Part shown: positions 2,881 through 19,636 of the stretch, piece after piece
Numbering within the stretch: the stretch's first letter is position 1
Layout of the letters: each line of letters starts with the position of its first letter
NCBI RefSeq assembly: GCF_002803295.2
Contig: NZ_PGGB02000004.1
Location: 82,265-101,900, forward strand
Direction of reading: 5' to 3'
DNA from: Caedibacter taeniospiralis
Lineage (GTDB): Bacteria; Pseudomonadota; Gammaproteobacteria; Francisellales; Francisellaceae
DNA length: 19,636 nucleotides
Program-made: the position numbers and the translations under genes
Notes under the pieces: generated by a model
Database searches by the model: none
What the model saw: the letters and a program-made list of their open reading frames with translations, nothing else
What the model was told of the DNA's origin: nothing

Positions 2881-3045
2881 CGACTTTGGGGCAACTTTCA
2901 TTCTCACCAGTGGACACACACAATGAAAGCAGATGTTGCACGCGCTTGATCGTCCACAACCCCCCTCTTCATTCCAACAAATCGCATTGATCAAACCCGT
3001 GCTGAATGGTTGTAATCTATCCACTAAGCGCAAACCTTCGCAGGT

Positions 3046-3927
3046 TTAGAAAGTATAGGAAACCCCCATCTGGAAGGTGTTCACTGAGAGGACCTTAGAG
3101 TTTGAGAAAAGGTGATCATACTCAAGATTTAAGCCAATTCCATTGGTAAATAAATAGCCAACTTCAGTGCCGATGCGTGGTGCGACACTACTGCCAATAC
3201 TATTGCTTGGCTGACCAGAAGGAGTGGATTGACTGTTTTTGACATAGGCAACCCCCGCTTTTCCTGTCAGGTTAAAGCCTGACTGGAACAGATATTTTAC
3301 TCGAAGCATGGTATTAATATCCCAGCTTTTGTAATCAACCGCATCCTTTGAGACTTTCCCATCATAGTTAAAGCCCAGTTCAAAACCTGCTAAAAACCCT
3401 TTGTTAAAGTGCCAGTCGTAACCCGCTCTTAAGCCACCTGAAGCAGAGATTCCCTTGCTGGTAATATTAGAACCTCCTACGGATGCCCCCATGAAGAACC
3501 CCTCAAATTCATATGCTAGAATTGTTGGAGAAGGCTCTACTTTGCTATAGTTAAACTGATCTGGGAAAGTCAGATCGTAAATAAGCTTTTTGCTCTTAGG
3601 ATGGTAAATTTTAACGTGAGTCGATGCCTGATTAATCACAACATAGCCTTGATCCAATGAAATGACCGGGGCATCACTATAGCCTAACTGGTCCACTAAA
3701 ATAATGGGCATATTGTTGCCTGTTACAGTTGGTGGGAATTTGATGTAGGTTTTATTTTGATCTACAAAGCCAAGCATGGGCTTGTAGGTTGAGTCTGAAG
3801 AGATCGTTTTGATATCAAAGTTAAAGTTAGTTGAAGGCAATGAAACCTCATCTGCAATAGCGATCGAAGTAAGACAACTCACGATTAATATTGGACCCAG
3901 AAGCTTGTTTTTCCACATAATATTCAT
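3046..3927 (-). CDS. Outer-membrane protein: signal peptide, N-terminal soluble domain, and a C-terminal 8-stranded OmpA/OmpW-like beta-barrel
   Basis: The track ORF runs to 4107, but that extension overlaps the DUF378 gene. An internal ATG at 3927 gives MNIMWKNKLLGPILIVSCLTSIAIA|DEV, a typical Sec signal. The C-terminal ~150 aa show alternating hydrophobic/G-rich strands (GGLRAGYDWHF, LAGFELGFNYD, LTGKAGVAYV, IGTEVGYLF, GLNLEYDHLF) and end in the OMP signature ...QMGVSYTF. Confidence 0.75.
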   Translation of the reverse strand: MNIMWKNKLLGPILIVSCLTSIAIADEVSLPSTNFNFDIKTISSDSTYKPMLGFVDQNKTYIKFPPTVTGNNMPIILVDQLGYSDAPVISLDQGYVVINQASTHVKIYHPKSKKLIYDLTFPDQFNYSKVEPSPTILAYEFEGFFMGASVGGSNITSKGISASGGLRAGYDWHFNKGFLAGFELGFNYDGKVSKDAVDYKSWDINTMLRVKYLFQSGFNLTGKAGVAYVKNSQSTPSGQPSNSIGSSVAPRIGTEVGYLFTNGIGLNLEYDHLFSNSKVLSVNTFQMGVSYTF

Positions 3928-6743: not shown

Positions 6744-7190
6744 ATGACTACGTCACTTGATCAATTATTTACCAAACAACAACGCATTCAATTCGACAGC
6801 TGTTGCCAATACTATGAGTTAGCCTTGTCTTATTTTGGATACAACGTGCAAGCTCAGTGCTGCATTGATGATAAGAAAAAAATCGTGCTTTATGCGGTCA
6901 ATGTTTTTTATCAAGGTCAGCAGCATCAGGTGTTTACAGCTTTAACCTTAGAAGAATTCTATAAAAAAATGGAGTTAGTTTATCAGCTTTATCTTTACGC
7001 TAAGGATCATCAAACTGATCTAGATGAAGCATTGGATTATTACCTTGATGAGTATCAGCAGTTTATCGCGATCCAAGGTGAGATAGATGATCTGCTAAAT
7101 TGGCAGGATTTTGTCGATGAAGAACTCAGTAAGACGAGTCCCTATAGCTATGATATGGTACTAAGTAGTGAAAACAGGACATTGCACTAA
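6744..7190 (+). CDS. Hypothetical acidic protein (148 aa)
   Basis: A strong AGGAGG lies 6 nt upstream of the ATG, and the ORF is clean. I recognise no family. It is rich in Q/D/E/Y, with two CC pairs near the N-terminus. Confidence 0.6.
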   Translation: MTTSLDQLFTKQQRIQFDSCCQYYELALSYFGYNVQAQCCIDDKKKIVLYAVNVFYQGQQHQVFTALTLEEFYKKMELVYQLYLYAKDHQTDLDEALDYYLDEYQQFIAIQGEIDDLLNWQDFVDEELSKTSPYSYDMVLSSENRTLH

Positions 7191-7233
7191 GGTTGCTGAA
7201 TAAGAAATAGGGATGATTTGAGTTTATAAGTTT

Positions 7234-8436
7234 CTAAAGTCTAGGAAGCGCATTAAGTAATGTCAGTATCTCAAGCAAAATCATAGCCCCAGCGATCAAT
7301 AAAACCATTCCAAGATAGACCTTACTTAGGAGGTGATTCTTATTTTGTCGCCCACGAATAACCCAAGCCATTGCCGCAGGTAAGCCAATGAGTAAAATGG
7401 CGACAAAAATGCTGGCATAACCTAGCGCAATGATAAAGCCCTTGGGATATAAAACTGCAAATAAGAAAGGGGGTAGAAAAGTAATCATAAATGCGGCACC
7501 TTTATCGAGGTGTGTCAGTCGTTGTAGCCGATACGTATCGCGATTAAAGTCAAACAGTCCAAGGGTGACACCCAAAAACGAGGTGGTAATTGCAACCGAT
7601 TCAAACAAATAAGCAAAACTACCGACGTGGGCACTGTGGTAACTTCCCACAATTCCTGAGCTAGTATTCCCATTTTGAATAATACCTTGAAAACCATCAG
7701 CACCATAAACAGGGATGGAACCCAAGGTGCAAATTATCCAAATTAAGTAAATCACCAGTGGGATGAGGCTTCCAAAAATAATGGCGTTACGTAAAGTCTT
7801 TCGATCAGATTTAACATAAGTGCGCAAGGTTGGGATAATGTGGTGAAAGCCAAAAGAAGTAATCAAAATGGGAAACGTAATCCACACAAAGTTCGATGAA
7901 CGAGTTTCTGTGCTCAAGAGTACTTGCTGAACGCTGGGGATTATCGCAACAACAAAAGCGAAAAAAGCTAGAAATTTAACCAGCATCAATACCTTATTAG
8001 CATGATCTACGGCGCGTGTGCCAATATAAACAAAGAAACCCAGAACTAAGATAAACAAAGCACTGTTAAGCGTGTCAGGTAAATATATATCGAGTTTGTC
8101 AAGTCCCCCGGCAACGAGATTCCCTCCACCTGCACTATAAGCAGCAGTAAGGGAGTAAAGGAGTAAGAGATAGGAAATCAAGGTGATGATCTGACCACGC
8201 TTACCCAGGGTTGACTGCGCCATACGACTGAAGTTAGTGCCATCAGGCATTGACATGTTGACTTCCGCTAATAGCAATGCCGTAAGCATCATCACAAACC
8301 AGACAATGACTAAAAGCAGACTTGCAAGCCAAAAACCACAAGCAGCAACTGTGGCTGGAATGGCTAACATTCCTGCACCGACACTGGTGCCAGTGATAAT
8401 CATTGCTGCACCAAAACCTCGAGAAGACAGCCACAT
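7234..8436 (-). CDS. Aromatic amino acid (Tyr/Trp) permease, HAAAP family (TyrP/Mtr/TnaB-like)
   Basis: 400 aa with about 11 TM segments. The N-terminal ITGTSVGAGMLAIPATVAACGF corresponds to the TyrP/Mtr signature (AGTTIGAGMLAMP). Confidence 0.8.
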   Translation of the reverse strand: MWLSSRGFGAAMIITGTSVGAGMLAIPATVAACGFWLASLLLVIVWFVMMLTALLLAEVNMSMPDGTNFSRMAQSTLGKRGQIITLISYLLLLYSLTAAYSAGGGNLVAGGLDKLDIYLPDTLNSALFILVLGFFVYIGTRAVDHANKVLMLVKFLAFFAFVVAIIPSVQQVLLSTETRSSNFVWITFPILITSFGFHHIIPTLRTYVKSDRKTLRNAIIFGSLIPLVIYLIWIICTLGSIPVYGADGFQGIIQNGNTSSGIVGSYHSAHVGSFAYLFESVAITTSFLGVTLGLFDFNRDTYRLQRLTHLDKGAAFMITFLPPFLFAVLYPKGFIIALGYASIFVAILLIGLPAAMAWVIRGRQNKNHLLSKVYLGMVLLIAGAMILLEILTLLNALPRL

Positions 8437-12040: not shown

Positions 12041-12793
12041 TTAATTGAACCGAGGTGTTTTGCCGTTAAATACATCCACAATGGCATCAATAATCTTCCA
12101 GCCTTGTTTACGAGCAGTCGATAGTAAAGTACGAATACGCACAAATTTCTGGGCCCCAGCCTCACTACGAAAGCAACCCGAAACTTTTTGCTTTACCTTC
12201 ATCATACGCAAGTCATTCTCCGCTTGATTATTGGTAAATGGCACCTTAGCATCATAAATAAATCTCAATACCTCAGCTTTATAATCACCTAAGCGTTTTT
12301 GAGTCGATGCGATAACCAGTCTCATCCAAGTGCTTCACAGGCGCATTTTTAAGTCTCGCCAATATCTCTTGCTCAAACTCAATCAGCTGATCAGTACACG
12401 TTTGACCAGATTCGGCAATACTCGCCGTTGCCACACAAACACCAAATAAATCTTCTAACAGTTGTTGGACTCGTTGCTCAGGAATAAAATGTTGGGTTTG
12501 CAAATGCGTCGCATAGCTTTTATTAGGACGTACAAACCATCGCTTGAAGGCGGTTTTGAACTGTTGCGACTATTCTTAGAATAGCCGCTTCTTAAGTTGC
12601 TCAATCTCCTCTTTTAGTCGAGCATTTTCACGCTCAAGCGCGTCGATTCTGGTTAATAGCTCTTGAATCATTTTTTTCTAGGATCGTGTCCATTGGTAAG
12701 ATTACGCCATACTTATTTGCAAATGAAAATACCTGATCTGGAAAAAATGCCAAAATTCATCATCTATCAAAATTTAACCTGCTGGGTGGTTAC
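12041..12793 (-). pseudogene. Decayed IS66-family transposase (single-ORF type) with internal deletions; possible left terminal repeat
   Basis: Three collinear pieces lie on the minus strand:
- 12576-12671 encodes MIQELLTRIDALERENARLKEEIEQLKKRLF*, the N-terminal leucine zipper typical of IS66 TnpC.
- 12285-12569 contains ..HFIPEQRVQQLLEDLFGV...[11 protein letters not shown], the block just before the DDE domain.
- 12041-12325 encodes ...[46 protein letters not shown], the IS66 C-terminal domain.
The zinc-finger and DDE catalytic regions are missing. The complement of 12769-12793 begins GTAACCACCCAGCAGG, resembling the GTAA-type IS66 end; this is tentative. No right end was found. Confidence 0.75.
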
Positions 12794-13107: not shown

Positions 13108-13240
13108 CTAGAGACTAGAAACTAGAGACTAGAAACTAGAGCTTGAATCGCTTCGCGATGAATTGATTTATAAAAAACAACCCATCTTGCAAAGCAAGAC
13201 TCAACTCCTAGTTTCTAGTCTCTAGTTTCTAGTCTCTAGA
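13108..13240. mobile_element. Heptamer-armed palindromic element inserted in 23S helix 98
   Basis: Left arm CTAGAGA CTAGAAA CTAGAGA CTAGAAA CTAG (13108-13139). It is the perfect 32-nt reverse complement of the right arm (13208-13239). The core at 13141-13207 contains GAATCGCTTCGCGATGA...CCATCTTGCAAAGCAAGA. The flanks align to E. coli 23S at about 2790-2810. Confidence 0.85.
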
Positions 13241-13262
13241 CGGGAGATCTCATCTTGAGGCT

Positions 13263-13295
<33 letters not shown>

Positions 13296-13463
13296 ATTCC
13301 GAACGTAGCTACTGGGCTATGCCTCTGGCGAGACAACCCAAACACCAGCGGTTCGTTCATTCCGGTCCTCTCGTACTAGGAACAAACCCTCTCAAATCTC
13401 CTACGCCCACGGCAGATAGGGACCGAACTGTCTCACGACGTTCTAAACCCAGCTCGCGTACCA

Positions 13464-13544
<81 letters not shown>

Positions 13545-13570
13545 TCCGTCGATATGAACTCTTGGGAGGA

Positions 13571-13626
<56 letters not shown>

Positions 13627-14045
13627 AGAACCACCGGATCACTAAGACCTACTTTCGTACCTGATCGAGCCGTCACTCTCTCAGTTAAGCGCACTTTTGC
13701 CTTTATACTCTTGGCGCGATTTCCGACCGCGCCGAGTGCACCTTCGTACTCCTCCGTTACTCTTTAGGAGGAGACCGCCCCAGTCAAACTACCCACCATA
13801 CACTGTCCTCGACTCTCGTCTGAGTTAGAACTCCAAAAATATCAGGGTGGTATTTCAACGTCGACTCCTTCCATACTAGCGTACGAATCTCTTAGTCTCC
13901 CACCTATCCTACACAAATATTCTCAAAGTCCAGTGCAAAGCTATAGTAAAGGTTCACGGGGTCTTTCCGTCTAACCGCGGGTACGCTGCATCTTCACAGC
14001 GATTTCAATTTCACTGAGTCCCAGATGGAGACAGTGTGGCCATCG

Positions 14046-14127
<82 letters not shown>

Positions 14128-14149
14128 TGGGGCTTCGATCCAGAGCTTC

Positions 14150-14452
14150 TCCTACCACTTAATTACTCTGATATTTCTTCTCTTAAGCCTTTATACAACA
14201 AACTCCTCATTCGATTCGCTCGCTTTAATTTAGCTTCTCTTAACCTAGCAAGCTTTTCACTTGCGTAAGCTTCGTAGTAGACAAGAATCCAATCTCTCGT
14301 TCGGCTTGTATATCTACTTCTACCCGACTTATGCGAATCAATCCTTTTCCTTAGGTTTTCACTATAACCCACAAGTAAAAACTATCTAATTCTTTCGAAT
14401 AAATCACGTATACACAATACATATCAAACTCCAAAATAATTAAGTGGTAGGA
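14150..14452. other. 23S intervening sequence at the tip of the H68 region (about E. coli 1865-1875), carrying a GIY-YIG ORF
   Basis: A perfect 16-bp inverted repeat: TCCTACCACTTAATTA (14150-14165) and TAATTAAGTGGTAGGA (14437-14452). The flanking rRNA reads GGGGTTATCC..[insert]..GGAGAAGCTCTGGATCGAAGCCCC, against E. coli GGGGUUAGCGCAAGCGAAGCUCUUGAUCGAAGCCCC. Confidence 0.8.
14163..14422 (-). pseudogene. Small GIY-YIG nuclease-family ORF (COG2827/UPF0213-like), split by a 1-nt frameshift
   Basis: ATG 14422 is preceded by TGGAG 6 nt upstream and gives MYCVYVIYSKELDSFYL (the GIY half), then stops at 14351-14353. The -1 frame from 14372 continues VGYSENLRKRIDSHKSGRSRYTSRTRDWILVYYEAYASEKLARLREAKLKR (the YIG..R..H..G...E half). 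That second frame is the track ORF 14163-14372. Same strand as the rRNA. Confidence 0.7.
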
Positions 14453-14591
14453 TAACCCCTTCAATTAACCTTCCAGCACCGGGCAGGCGTCACACCCTAT
14501 ACTTCCTCTTCCGAGTTCGCAGAGTGCTGTGTTTTTAGTAAACAGTCGCAGCCACCTGGTATTTGCAACCTCTTCACGCTCCAGACGTTCA

Positions 14592-14691
14592 CCTGACCAC
14601 TAAATTCCACGTCCTACAACAGGCTATCAACAAATTGTCTATCTCTACAACTCTCAACAGCTTTCATCCATCATAGAATTTAGTGGTCAGG
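14592..14691. other. 23S intervening sequence in helix 63 (100 bp, no ORF)
   Basis: A perfect 16-bp inverted repeat: CCTGACCACTAAATTC (14592-14607) and GAATTTAGTGGTCAGG (14676-14691). The flanks align with the variable H63 region of E. coli 23S (about 1700-1745). Confidence 0.75.
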
Positions 14692-15245
14692 CAAGTCCTT
14701 CACCCTAATGAGGCACACCTTCTCCCGAAGTTACGGTGTCATTTTGCCTAGTTCCTTCACCTGGGTTCTCTCATCGCCTTGGTATTCTCTACCCACCCAC
14801 CAGTGTCGGTTTACAGTACGGTCAATGGTAATTTATGCTTAGAAGCTTTTCCTGGAAGCCGAGCATCAATCTCTTGGCAGAACCCCGTAGAGCCCTGTTC
14901 CCTCTCACGCCTCAGATCATCATACACCCGGATTTGCCTAAGTGCACTACCTACACGCTTTCACCTGGACTACCATCCGCCAGGCAGACCTAGCTTTCTC
15001 CGTCTCTCCATCGCAACTACCATCGGTACAGGAATATTAACCTGTTTCCCATCGACTACTCCCTTCGGATTCGCCTTAGGCGCCGACTTACCCTACGTTG
15101 ATTAACATTGCGTAGGAAACCTTGGGTTTTCGGCCAATAAGAATCTCACTTATTTATCGTTACTCATGTCAGCATTCGCACTTCTGATACCTCCAGCACA
15201 CTTCTCAATGCACCTTCATAAGCTTACAGAACGCTCCCCTACCGA

Positions 15246-15678
15246 CTAGAAACTAGATACTAGAAACTAGATACTAGAATAGACATCAGCTATATCTTCT
15301 CTGTATACCTCTTAACATTCGCCCAACTTCGCAATACCTCTCATCGTAGCCCCTATGACTCTCCTGATCGATATACCCTAAGTCCCTTGCAAAATCCAGC
15401 CACACCCGGCATTCATCGCAAGAGCCTATCGCTATCTGAACAAACCTTCTTACTTCCTTTTCACTCGCTTGCTTGCCCATCCCTTCCGCTATGTTCGCAC
15501 ATATGGATTTGCTCGCTCGCCTTAATTGACTCCCAATCTCACACTGTTCTATCCGCGGCCACTTCATACTCTCCACGTGTAGCTCCAGCGCTAACTGATA
15601 TGCCTTCTGATATACTGATAAATTGTGATACGGCATCTTATCTCCTCTAGTCTCCAGTTTCTAGTCTCTAGTCTCTAG
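15246..15678. mobile_element. 23S helix 45 intervening sequence with heptamer arms and an S23p ORF
   Basis: Left arm CTAGAAA CTAGATA CTAGAAA CTAGATA CTAGAAT (15246-15280). Right arm CTAGTCT CCAGTTT CTAGTCT CTAGTCT CTAG (15647-15678). The flanks are CACCGAAGCTGCGGGA... and ...TCGGTAGGGGAGCGTTCTGTAAGC, which is the classical H45 IVS site. Confidence 0.9.
15286..15636 (-). CDS. Four-helix-bundle protein, 23S rRNA-intervening-sequence protein family (S23p; Avd-like)
   Basis: LSVYQKAYQLALELH...WPRIEQCEIGSQLRRASKSICANIAEGMGKQASEKEVRRFVQIAIGSCDECRVWLDFARDLGYI matches the family pattern (VWQKA..L...IY...FP..E...L..Q.RRAA.SI..NIAEG..R....E...FL.IA.GS..E....L..A..LGY). A strong GAGGAG lies 6 nt before the ATG. 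Same strand as the rRNA. Confidence 0.9.
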   Translation of the reverse strand: MPYHNLSVYQKAYQLALELHVESMKWPRIEQCEIGSQLRRASKSICANIAEGMGKQASEKEVRRFVQIAIGSCDECRVWLDFARDLGYIDQESHRGYDERYCEVGRMLRGIQRRYS

Positions 15679-15734
15679 TCCCGCAGCTTCGGTGTATCGC
15701 TTAGCCCCGTTAAATCTTTCGCGCAGGCCGACTC

Positions 15735-15798
<64 letters not shown>

Positions 15799-15833
15799 AT
15801 GCCTTCCCACATCGTTTCCCACTTAGCGATAAC

Positions 15834-15871
<38 letters not shown>

Positions 15872-16291
15872 CCACGACGGACCTTAGCACCCGCCGTGTG
15901 TCTCCCGTGATTCAACTTCGTCGTATTCTAAGTTTGCATCGAGTCGGTAAGATCGCAAAATCCCCCTAGTCGAAACAGTGCTTTACCCCAACGAGTCATT
16001 CACAAGGCACTACCTAAATAGTTTTCGGGGAGAACCAGCTATCTCCGCGCTTGATTAGCCTTTCACTCCGATCCACAACTCATCCCATAATTTTGCAACA
16101 TTACCGGGTTCGGTCCTCCAGTTGGTGTTACCCAACCTTCAACCTGGTCATGGATAGATCGCGTCGGTTTCGGGTCTACTCCTAGCGACTGTCCGCTCTA
16201 TTAAAACTCGCTTTCGCTACGGATCCCTTATTCAGTTATCCTCGCCACTAAAAGTAACTCGCTGACCCATTATACAAAAGGTACGCCATCA

Positions 16292-16436
16292 CTAGTCTCC
16301 TAGAAACTAGAAACTAGAGACTAGAAACCAGGAGTCGTATCTTGCTTTGCAAGATGATTTATTTTTGTAAATTAATCATCGCGAAGCGCTTCAACCCCTA
16401 ATCTCTAGTCTCTAGTTTCTAGTCTCTAGTTTCTAG
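16292..16436. mobile_element. Heptamer-armed palindromic element inserted in 23S helix 25
   Basis: Left arm CTAGTCT C CTAGAAA CTAGAAA CTAGAGA CTAGAAA (16292-16327). Right arm CTAATCT CTAGTCT CTAGTTT CTAGTCT CTAGTTT CTAG (16398-16436). The core at 16328-16397 is the reverse complement of the H98 core type. The flanks are GCGTACAAGCAGTCAGAG... and ...GATGGCGTACCTTTTGTATAATGG, which is the H25 IVS site. Confidence 0.85.
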
Positions 16437-16768
16437 CTCTGACTGCTTGTACGCAAACGGTTTCAGGTTCTATTTCACTCCCCTCATCGGGGTTCTTTTC
16501 GCCTTTCCCTCACGGTACTGGTTCACTATCGGTCAGTCAGTAGTATTTAGCCTTGGAGGATGGTCCCCCCTTCTTCAAACAGGATTTCTCGTGTCCCGCC
16601 CTACTTATTCGTATACCTAGTTCCACATCCAAGCTTTCGTCTACAGGACTATCACCTGCTATGGTCATCCTTCCCAGAATGTTCGACTAACTCACATGCT
16701 AAAGTATACCAGGCTCTTCCCCCTTCGCTCGCCGCTACTTAGGGAATCTCGGTTGATTTCTTTTCCTA

Positions 16769-16799
<31 letters not shown>

Positions 16800-16870
16800 C
16801 GCCTCACTTAACTTACGTCAGTGATACCCCACTCTTAAAATACTCATTCATGCACAAATTACACCCTCTA

Positions 16871-16943
16871 CTCACTCTAGTTTCTAGTTTCCAATCTCTA
16901 GTTTCTCGAAATGAATAAAGTGCTGAGCACTTTATGAGTGAGG
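16871..16943. repeat. Insert in 23S domain I (H9/H10 area) containing a solo heptamer arm
   Basis: CTCACTC (16871-16877) pairs with GAGTGAG (16937-16943). Inside are CTAGTTT CTAGTTT CCAATCT CTAGTTT (16877-16904) and a small hairpin AAAGTGC-TGA-GCACTTT. No complementary heptamer arm is present. The region is about 90 nt longer than E. coli 23S at about 130-180. Confidence 0.6.
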
Positions 16944-17089
16944 TGGGTTCCCCCATTCAGATATCTTCGGATCAATGCTTATTTGCCAGCTCCCCGAAGC
17001 TTTTCGCAGGCTATCACGTCTTTCCTCGCCTCTGACTGCCAAGGCATCCGCCGTTTGCGCTTATTCTCTTGGTCATTACTCTATAATAA

Positions 17090-17102
17090 ATTGTTAAAGA
17101 TC
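17090..17102 (-). promoter_or_regulatory. boxA-like antitermination element in the 23S leader
   Basis: The minus strand reads GATCTTTAACAAT, against the rrn boxA consensus TGCTCTTTAACAA. This is the usual position just upstream of the 23S processing stem. Confidence 0.5.
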
Positions 17103-17107
17103 TCGGC

Positions 17108-17249
17108 TCTAGATACTAGAACGCTCGCTGCGCTTACTCTAGAAACTAGAAACCAGACTCGAATCGCTTCGCGATGATTCATTTAAAAAATCATCTCGCA
17201 CAGCAAGATTCAATCCCTAGTTTCTAGTCTCTTGACACTAGTCTCTAGA
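17108..17249. mobile_element. Heptamer-armed element, spacer copy a (tRNA-Ala to 23S)
   Basis: 142 bp, identical by eye to 17326-17467. Outer arms TCTAGATACTAGA / TAGTCTCTAGA. Inner arms CTAGAAACTAGAAACC / CCCTAGTTTCTAGTCTC. Core GAATCGCTTCGCGATGATTCATTTAAAAAATCATCTCGCACAGCAAGATTC. Confidence 0.85.
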
Positions 17250-17325
17250 TGGTGGAGCCAAGGAGGATCGAACTCCTGACCTCCTGCGTGCAAAGCAGGC
17301 GCTCTCCCAGCTGAGCTATGGCCCC
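17250..17325 (-). tRNA. tRNA-Ala (anticodon TGC), CCA encoded
   Basis: The reverse complement is GGGGCCATAGCTCAGCTGGGAGAGCGCCTGCTTTGCACGCAGGAGGTCAGGAGTTCGATCCTCCTTGGCTCCACCA. It has the G3:U70 identity pair and a cloverleaf very close to E. coli tRNA-Ala(UGC). Confidence 0.97.
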
Positions 17326-17467
17326 TCTAGATACTAGAACGCTCGCTGCGCTTACTCTAGAAACTAGAAACCAGACTCGAATCGCTTCGCGATGATTCAT
17401 TTAAAAAATCATCTCGCACAGCAAGATTCAATCCCTAGTTTCTAGTCTCTTGACACTAGTCTCTAGA
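17326..17467. mobile_element. Heptamer-armed element, spacer copy b (tRNA-Ile to tRNA-Ala)
   Basis: Identical to 17108-17249. It lies directly 3' of the tRNA-Ile CCA end in the transcript. Confidence 0.85.
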
Positions 17468-17544
<77 letters not shown>

Positions 17545-17545
17545 A

Positions 17546-17658
17546 CTAGATACTAGAGACTAGAGACTAGTTTCTAGAAGTATTCTAGTTTCTAGTCTCT
17601 AGTCTCTAGTCTCTAGTTTCTAGTTTCTAGTTTCTAGTCTCTAGTTTCTAGTCTCTAG
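17546..17658. repeat. Core-less heptamer array between 16S and tRNA-Ile
   Basis: CTAGATA CTAGAGA CTAGAGA CTAG (17546-17570), then TTTCTAG AAGTATT, then ten consecutive 7-bp units CTAGTTT/CTAGTCT starting at 17585, 17592 ... 17648, closed by CTAG (17655-17658). Confidence 0.9.
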
Positions 17659-17775
17659 AAAAAACATCATTTGTAAACACTCAAATACTTCTCGCTCTTT
17701 CTTAATTTCTTTCGTACTTCAAACATCAAAAATTCAACATTCAACATTAAAAATTCAACATCATACTCGTACCTT

Positions 17776-19411
<1,636 letters not shown>

Positions 19412-19636
19412 AAATCCTTAGATCATAACCACTTATATCAATTTTGAATGTTTAATTATGAATGTTAAATTTAAAATAACTCAACACACAATTAAACATT
19501 TAAAATTCAAAACTAACACAGTGACTACAATCCGCAATATTCTTCGCTCAAAGTATTCAAGTATCTACATCTTATATCTCTTTAAACATCTTCAAAAACC
19601 CACTACCTGGGCACCTGCACCGAACATTCTCAGCGA

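Follow-up and report, generated by a model that had tools for sequence, protein, structure and literature searches.

Intervening sequences (IVSs) of bacterial ribosomal RNA (rRNA) replace the tips of helices H9, H25 or H45, have complementary ends and are excised by RNase III, which leaves the rRNA fragmented but functional. Their origin and movement have been open questions since 1990; descriptions of them as transposition remnants or as mobile elements have lacked direct evidence (PMC4990558). In the S23p IVS of Coxiella burnetii the stem contains tandem heptamers (GACAGAT), the number of which varies between strains, and RNase III cleavage maps inside this stem, at the start of the first repeat (PMC4990558). 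Here we analyse a 19,636-nt stretch of Caedibacter taeniospiralis DNA (contig NZ_PGGB02000004.1, positions 82,265–101,900; hereafter the window, numbered from its first letter), in which a preliminary description had singled out 67 bases (13141–13207) as a conserved double-hairpin core. These bases cap a hairpin of ~135 nt that is inserted in the 23S gene. In our reading, which we hold to be probable, the core is the apical part of a mini-IVS without an open reading frame (ORF), a protein-less relative of the rRNA IVSs that RNase III excises.

The inserts of C. taeniospiralis resemble described IVSs in several respects. They replace the tips of H25 and H45, as do the 23S IVSs of Salmonella, Yersinia, Campylobacter and Leptospira and the S23p IVS of C. 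burnetii, and their long complementary termini (arms of 33–42 nt, 83–100% complementary) form a stem. As in C. burnetii, the H45 copy encodes S23p and the stem consists of tandem heptamers, there of the GACAGAT type (PMC4990558). Like IVSs, too, the elements are sporadic and show allelic variation, a second sequence of the species carrying a different H25 element between identical flanks. Unlike IVSs, a single ORF-less core family occupies four kinds of site, namely H25, H98, 16S h6 and the tRNA-adjacent spacer; H98 and the spacer lie outside the classical set of 23S H9, H25 and H45. Its copies are found in both orientations and have their arms in common with the S23p IVS, and excision, in contrast to that of the IVSs known to be excised, we infer for C. 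taeniospiralis by analogy with Coxiella. In 16S rRNA, IVSs are known from helix 6/V1 of Helicobacter canis, some Campylobacter and Caedibacter caryophilus. The C. taeniospiralis 16S insert is likewise a stem-loop of the ~100–230 nt class in the 5′ variable region, although, unlike those IVSs, it belongs to the same family as inserts in 23S and in the spacer. The literature that we searched covers IVSs at H25/H45, S23p and the Coxiella stem heptamers, and in it we found no rRNA insertions in C. taeniospiralis, no IVS sites at H98 or in spacers, and no shared-core, shared-arm family spanning 23S, 16S and spacer in both orientations.

The ~65-nt core is present five times in the window: at 23S H98 (element E1, core 13141–13207, E. 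coli ~2790), at 23S H25 (E3, core ~16333–16397, E. coli ~540), at 16S h6 (E8, core ~19249–19309, E. coli ~70–89) and twice in the 16S–23S spacer (E5, core ~17158–17212, and E6). All four sequences quoted in the preliminary description are found in the window exactly as written, and alignment to E. coli rRNA confirms the helices to which it had assigned them. It had also recognised the element as repeated, at several rRNA sites and in both orientations, while missing the ~135-nt hairpin and the heptamer arms that this hairpin shares with the S23p IVS. With up to three mismatches allowed, the hairpin-1 15-mer ATCGCTTCGCGATGA matches at five places (13147, 17163 and 17381 on the plus strand, 16376 and 19288 on the minus strand) against ~0.43 expected, a count reached in 0 of 200 shuffles, and the cores align at a mean column identity of 77–79%. 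The claim of two orientations needed care, because each core is partly self-palindromic (60–75% identical to its own reverse complement). It is upheld: 10 of 10 pairwise comparisons return the same orientation classes, with H98, the spacer copies and the H25 copy of the second C. taeniospiralis sequence (contig L001, see below) on one side and window H25 and 16S on the other, and a covariance model of the cores scores 78–85 bits in the proposed orientation against 16–23 bits when flipped. Three window cores (H98 and the two in the spacer) thus lie one way and two (H25 and 16S) the other.

Each core forms the apex of a ~135-nt palindrome without ORF, the ~35-bp arms of which are tandem CTAGAGA/CTAGAAA heptamers. 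All elements are given here as minus-strand features, the strand of the rRNA genes. In E1 the 5′ arm in the rRNA sense (13208–13240) is 90–100% complementary to the 3′ arm (13108–13140), and the core between them reads, in that sense, hairpin 2 followed by hairpin 1 with its GCGAAGC. E3 (16300–16436), at the apex of H25, and E8 (19216–19342), in 16S h6, have cores flipped relative to E1. E5 (17107–17249), in the spacer between tRNA-Ala and 23S, is oriented as E1 and begins directly after the tRNA 3′ end; E6 (17325–17467), between tRNA-Ile and tRNA-Ala, is 94% identical to it over 177 nt, a duplication. The same arms are found on three elements of other kinds. First, E2 (15239–15680) is a classical IVS at 23S H45 (E. 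coli ~1175), which, like the elements at the other three rRNA sites, replaces a helix apex; it alone encodes S23p (116 aa, 15286–15636; Pfam 23S_rRNA_IVP, PF05635, E = 7e-32, with a weak bAvd-like match), the core-bearing elements sharing just its heptamer arms. Second, E7 (17546–17659), between 16S and tRNA-Ile, is a core-less, heptamer-only hairpin with unequal arms (~3.5 versus 11 units). Lastly, E4 (16877–16909) is a degenerate run of heptamers with one arm only. It lies in the helix 9/10 region of 23S, within an 84+10-nt insertion (16809–16936) that is possibly a decayed member of the heptamer-armed family. All 50 window matches to CTAGWNWCTAG fall within 13108–19334, against 0.08 expected, and there is none in the other 13 kb of the window. 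The arms are mutually complementary across the operon, so that long-range alternative pairings between elements are possible in the precursor, such as a stem around a tRNA of the kind met in L160 (see below).

In the rRNA sense, all copies have a single uninterrupted rod as their minimum-energy fold, and the RNAalifold consensus is an unbranched rod as well. Sense-fold energies range from −46.5 to −87.5 kcal/mol across the spans folded; whole-element folds of four window copies lie between −60.3 and −87.5 kcal/mol (z = −5.8 to −14.4), with E1 at −84.7 to −87.5 kcal/mol and z = −14.4. In all six elements compared, the sense fold is more stable than the antisense fold by 10–18 kcal/mol: −84.7 against −70.3 kcal/mol for E1 (H98), −74.7 against −60.0 for E3 (H25), −63.2 against −48.4 for E8 (16S h6), −60.3 against −42.9 for E5 and −62.9 against −44.7 for E6 (both spacer), and −50.8 against −40.1 for the L001 copy (H25). 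Wobble pairs account for this gap. G·U pairs number 38 in the sense stems, against three A·C 1×1 mismatches (binomial p = 1e-8); the sense fold of E8 has 11 G·U pairs, and the pattern recurs in both orientation classes. Pairing is therefore maintained by selection on the transcript, and this RNA-level selection keeps the stems paired whichever way the core lies.

The double-hairpin fold put forward in the preliminary description fares less well. Its three stems overlap as written, with GAT used in both hairpin 1 and the central stem, and folding of both strands returns the rod, not the double hairpin, in the transcribed strand of every copy. Forcing both hairpins costs 9.7 (H98), 5.9 (spacer) and 4.6 kcal/mol (L001), and only 0.8 and 0.7 kcal/mol in the flipped H25 and 16S copies. 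The double hairpin is thus predicted to be a competing conformer rather than the favoured fold. Once one half of a palindromic rod can form a small hairpin, the complementary hairpin in the partner half is implied, which makes the second hairpin nearly automatic.

Relatives of these elements occur in other bacteria: at least eight of their rRNA loci have S23p IVSs bracketed by these heptamer arms. S23p homologues with 63–71% identity led to rRNA contigs (L249, L250, L251/252, L266/267 and L270/271) with IVSs flanked by CTAGAGA/CTAGAAA, and a heptamer scan led to metagenome loci (L160, L199 and L205) in which S23p IVSs are flanked by the same units. Several of the relatives' operons have extra mini-inserts with heptamer arms, in the spacer or at H9/10 or H25, and most of these have different cores. 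An element at the apex of H68 in L251/252, the 23S of which is only 77% identical to that of the window, aligns with the Caedibacter element over its full length. Its core scores 29–46 in alignment with the Caedibacter cores (null mean ~13; 0 of 300 shuffles reach these values), the covariance model gives 22 bits (E = 0.0045), and hairpin 1 (ATCGCGAAGCGAT) is identical. In its arms CAAG:CTTG stands in place of CTAG:CTAG in all aligned heptamers, so that each unit has changed on both sides in a compensatory way. Judged by this similarity, the flagged element and the H68 element of this distant bacterium are true homologues. L252 has another element near E. coli ~404, which matches the Caedibacter cores marginally (p = 0.003–0.03), and the core at H25 of L250 was rejected as a family member, its match being non-significant (p > 0.03); both hold GGCGAAGCC-type hairpins. 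The metagenome scan, with three copies of CTAGWNWCTAG, otherwise returned mostly unrelated (CTAGNNN)n microsatellites, its only rRNA relatives being L160, L198, L199 and L205. A scan of genome contigs with the loose pattern GAANCGCTNCGCGATGA (15 specified bases) gave 120 chance matches, none with heptamers, and a scan of viral contigs with a specific two-hairpin pattern gave 11, all by chance in GC-rich coding DNA and again none with heptamers. A plasmid search with the whole element matched by the arm alone, in two Acinetobacter plasmids.

Covariation within the species was assessed on five distinct Caedibacter cores. A compensatory substitution had been reported for the 16S copy; the change from T-A to C-G is indeed present (columns 89/103), but it is not significant: it is the only pair changed on both sides under the double-hairpin model, and 109 of 500 shuffles equal it. 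Under the rod model, too, just one pair is changed on both sides, a result that 380 of 500 shuffles equal, and neither model is statistically supported by covariation within the window. These results bear on an account in which the core is a specific recognition module, formed by the three-way double hairpin or just by the GCGAAGC mini-hairpin and bound by S23p, a processing enzyme or a mobility protein, either on RNA or on single-stranded or cruciform DNA, so that its conservation would be functional. We regard this account as doubtful. It draws on the invariance of GCGAAGC in eight of eight aligned cores, other lineages included; in the commoner orientation this is the middle of hairpin 1 as read on the rRNA-sense strand. 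The same heptanucleotide, d(GCGAAGC), is a classic DNA mini-hairpin of unusual stability, and we know of no documented role for it in IVSs. That stability, however, refers to DNA, and the flipped copies persist although their transcript then carries GCUUCGC in place of GCGAAGC. When putative distant homologues are added, hairpin 1 has two covarying pairs (A-U to G-C and C-G to G-C), a score reached by 2 of 500 shuffles; this depends on the marginal L252 ~404 core and the non-significant L250 H25 core, both noticed for their hairpin-like look, and with homologies this weak we treat it as a lead only. Pairing by hand suggests that the changes in the L252 ~404 core keep the hairpin and break the matching rod pairs, and hairpin 2 is complementary at nucleotides that bulge from the rod, UU/AA becoming UG/CA in the L252 H68 element. 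In the H25 and 16S copies the double hairpin also lies no more than 0.8 kcal/mol above the rod, yet the other three of the five copies favour the rod by 4.6–9.7 kcal/mol, one hairpin-1 pair is broken in the Caedibacter H25 copy (G·A), and the double-hairpin model as a whole is without significant covariation.

A comparison between C. taeniospiralis sequences reveals allelic turnover at H25. Contig L001, from assembly GCA_054403375.1, runs along 23S from H25 to beyond H45. Its alignment with the window has 1447 columns and 57 differences, every one of them within the H25 element; ~1300 nt of flanking sequence, made up of 23S rRNA and the whole S23p IVS, are identical. The L001 core is oriented opposite to that of window H25. 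In BLAST the L001 element is 85.6% identical to the window H98 copy versus 82.1% to the flipped window H25 copy, and its arms hold CTGGAAA units that are absent from the window. Because it matches neither H98 nor H25 exactly and has these arm units, the L001 element is a genuine third allele. It shows a recent replacement, and its source could be a different strain or one of the other rRNA operons, of which there are three in all. We considered an assembly chimera as its source and rejected this, since arms and core differ from every window element.

The L001 allele also shows that in-place inversion alone cannot account for the two orientations. It bears on a view that we consider very unlikely, in which no mobility is involved and the inserts are ancient, lineage-specific expansion segments, homogenised by concerted evolution and sometimes inverted in place via their own arms. 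The arms are indeed inverted repeats able to mediate inversion, the presence of three rRNA operons (PMC7297999) together with common heptamers favours gene conversion, and four of the five differences between a further contig, L002, and the window are in the heptamer arms of the S23p IVS. However, the L001 core is not the reverse complement of the window H25 core (18 mismatches and one gap in 123 nt) even though the flanks are identical; the same core stands at four non-homologous sites and so must have been delivered there; and the homologue in L251/252 occupies a different helix (H68), in a 23S of only 77% identity. The two orientations had been taken as evidence of independent insertion events. 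This holds to the extent that the copies cannot be derived from one another by simple in-place inversion, although gene conversion could explain them too: because the arms are inverted repeats that are homologous from site to site, conversion between sites could deliver the core either way round. Our data cannot separate insertion from arm-mediated gene conversion as the copying route.

Elements of this size and shape also invite comparison with miniature inverted-repeat transposable elements (MITEs). The Correia/NEMIS elements of Neisseria are MITEs that act as RNase III substrates when transcribed. Like them, the Caedibacter element is of the ~100–150 bp class, has inverted-repeat ends and no ORF, forms a hairpin in a longer transcript and is found in either orientation; unlike them, it has tandem-heptamer arms, shows no target-site duplication and has no further copies in ~31 kb of DNA from beyond the rRNA operon. 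To our knowledge there is no cognate transposase for it. The elements could nevertheless be ordinary MITEs, mobilised through their terminal inverted repeats by a transposase encoded elsewhere, and seen in the rRNA operon because they are tolerated there and because the sample of other DNA is small. We judge this improbable. Their small size, terminal inverted repeats, lack of an ORF, several copies in both orientations and replaced H25 allele would all suit a MITE; IS fragments lie nearby, for example an IS66 fragment at 12041–12325, and the homologue in a distant bacterium suggests horizontal transfer. On the other hand, no junction shows a target-site duplication, the flanks being instead the two complementary strands of the native rRNA helix. 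There are 7–8 heptamer-armed elements in 6.5 kb of the rRNA operon versus none in ~31 kb of other DNA, CTAGWNWCTAG being absent also from the related-strain non-rRNA loci L244–L248 (the longest 18 kb). The tandem-heptamer arms are shared with the S23p IVS and not with any transposase gene, S23p being no known transposase, and the strand-specific G·U enrichment reflects selection on the transcript.

We return to the mini-IVS reading and the course of events it would entail. The element takes the place of the terminal loop in surface-exposed, insertion-tolerant helices (23S H98 and H25, 16S h6) and is also placed directly 3′ of each spacer tRNA. In the pre-rRNA its arms, tandem CUAGARA heptamers, would pair into a long, near-perfect double-stranded stem, and RNase III would cut inside this heptamer stem, by analogy with the Coxiella S23p IVS. 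The core would then be discarded, and the remainder of the ribosome would keep the rRNA pieces together; in the spacer, where the stems abut tRNA 3′ ends, the cut would separate the tRNAs from the rRNAs. Either orientation would be tolerated because the element is a quasi-palindrome and forms the needed stem both ways. At the DNA level, copies would spread and be replaced by insertion or by gene conversion via the common arms, and conservation of the core would reflect common descent together with pressure to keep the rod paired, rather than a dedicated double-hairpin function. Both the excision by RNase III and the copying mechanism are steps that we infer.

Several points weigh against this reading. 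In this organism the elements may be retained as expansion segments instead of being excised by RNase III. The core has no detectable similarity to the interior of the S23p IVS, which leaves its derivation by internal deletion unsupported, and we rejected that origin. No mobility enzyme has been identified for the heptamer-armed elements, and their restriction to the rRNA operon, resting as it does on ~31 kb of non-rRNA DNA of the species, is not proven. Furthermore, the GCGAAGC hairpin and its flanks are conserved beyond the need of a discarded loop, and the two apparently covarying stem pairs hint at a specific recognition role.

A broader proposal, which we offer as speculative and rather unlikely, is that S23p-type IVSs and the ORF-less mini-elements make up one rRNA-operon-specific mobile family, with tandem-heptamer arms as its defining feature. 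As non-autonomous derivatives, the mini-elements would spread between helices, spacers and species in either orientation, with S23p (an Avd-like four-helix bundle) or the GCGAAGC hairpin aiding mobility or stem recognition. If true, such a family would provide the first concrete handle on IVS movement. We consider the finding of moderate interest because it makes IVS mobility testable: a single cluster contains an S23p IVS and five ORF-less relatives with the same arms, at four kinds of site and in both orientations, and is complemented by an allele swap between otherwise identical sequences and by a homologue in a distant bacterium. If excision occurs, the 23S rRNA of this endosymbiont would be in several pieces and its 16S rRNA in two. 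On the practical side, a 127-nt insert in 16S helix 6 (V1) and the ~1.1 kb by which 23S is extended have consequences for the sizing of amplicons, for rRNA depletion and for assembly of this organism.

Caedibacter taeniospiralis is an R-body-bearing ‘killer’ endosymbiont of Paramecium. As a Francisella-related gammaproteobacterium (Thiotrichales, Fastidiosibacteraceae) it stands outside the Legionellales, to which the preliminary description had pointed. Its genome measures 1.32 Mb and has three rRNA clusters (PMC7297999). By Rfam and ARAGORN, the window contains a complete rRNA operon on the minus strand, with 16S rRNA (19411–17776), tRNA-Ile (17544–17468), tRNA-Ala (17325–17250), 23S rRNA (17074–13009) and 5S rRNA (12967–12853). 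The 23S gene, at 4066 nt, exceeds the E. coli length by ~1160 nt. At gathering thresholds Rfam matches only rRNA and tRNA models in the window, with no group I or group II intron, and in E-value mode the element matches only generic long-hairpin miRNA models, far below threshold. A RimO gene adjoins the operon, its protein being 100% identical to a C. taeniospiralis protein; exact-protein look-ups of the 450-aa RimO ORF, P0001 and a spurious ORF within 23S gave no match. Directly downstream of the 5S gene lies the IS66-family transposase fragment (94 aa, 12041–12325), just past which the related strain's contig L244 stops. A ~20-nt AT-rich repeat, ATTCAACATTAAAAATTCAA with variants, is present as two tandem copies just downstream of 16S and one copy upstream (17718–17758 and 19491–19510).

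The same 23S gene harbours inserts of other kinds, both on the minus strand. A 293-nt insertion at the apex of helix 68 (14158–14450; E. coli ~1868) has its own 15-nt inverted repeat, CCTACCACTTAATTA, and no heptamer arms. When two reading frames are joined, it matches a GIY-YIG nuclease domain (Pfam E = 2.6e-15), here frameshifted, and it looks like a decayed ORF of the homing-endonuclease type inside a stem-loop. A 104-nt insertion at the apex of helix 63 (14584–14687; E. coli ~1735), with its own 16-nt inverted repeat, CCTGACCACTAAATTC, and no heptamers, is a third kind of insert in this gene. When contigs L002 and L254 are compared with window positions 15103–15825 and 14459–15742, respectively, nearly all differences are in inserts (the S23p IVS arms, the S23p ORF and the H63 insert), with one in rRNA proper (15710).

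Heptamer repeats were also met outside this operon in other settings. Homogeneous arrays such as (CTAGAAA)n and (CTAGATA)n are frequent in metagenomic contigs without rRNA (L124–L243), and the two Acinetobacter plasmids, NZ_CP010400.1 and NZ_CP114259.1 (~9.3 kb each), have 23–40 places that match the arm sequence. In L160, from a more distant organism, the CTAG-heptamer S23p IVS is at H25 instead of H45 (reverse-complement coordinates 1990–2480), while H45 (near E. coli 1163–1185) has a second insert with a stem of GACAGAT heptamers, the unit reported for Coxiella; in its spacer, heptamer arms enclose both tRNAs together. Stems of rRNA inserts in other bacteria use different tandem heptamers, of CAAGAGA, CAGGAGC-like and GTGACGA-like types, with changes matched on both arms (L252 at 725–870, 985–1125 and 2885–3062, and the H25 insert of L266/L267), and a heptamer period seems to be common to IVS stems in general. 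Finally, the S23p-IVS-bearing 23S of L249 also has, at 7078–7756, a group I intron (Rfam 55 bits) with a LAGLIDADG ORF, near E. coli ~1933.

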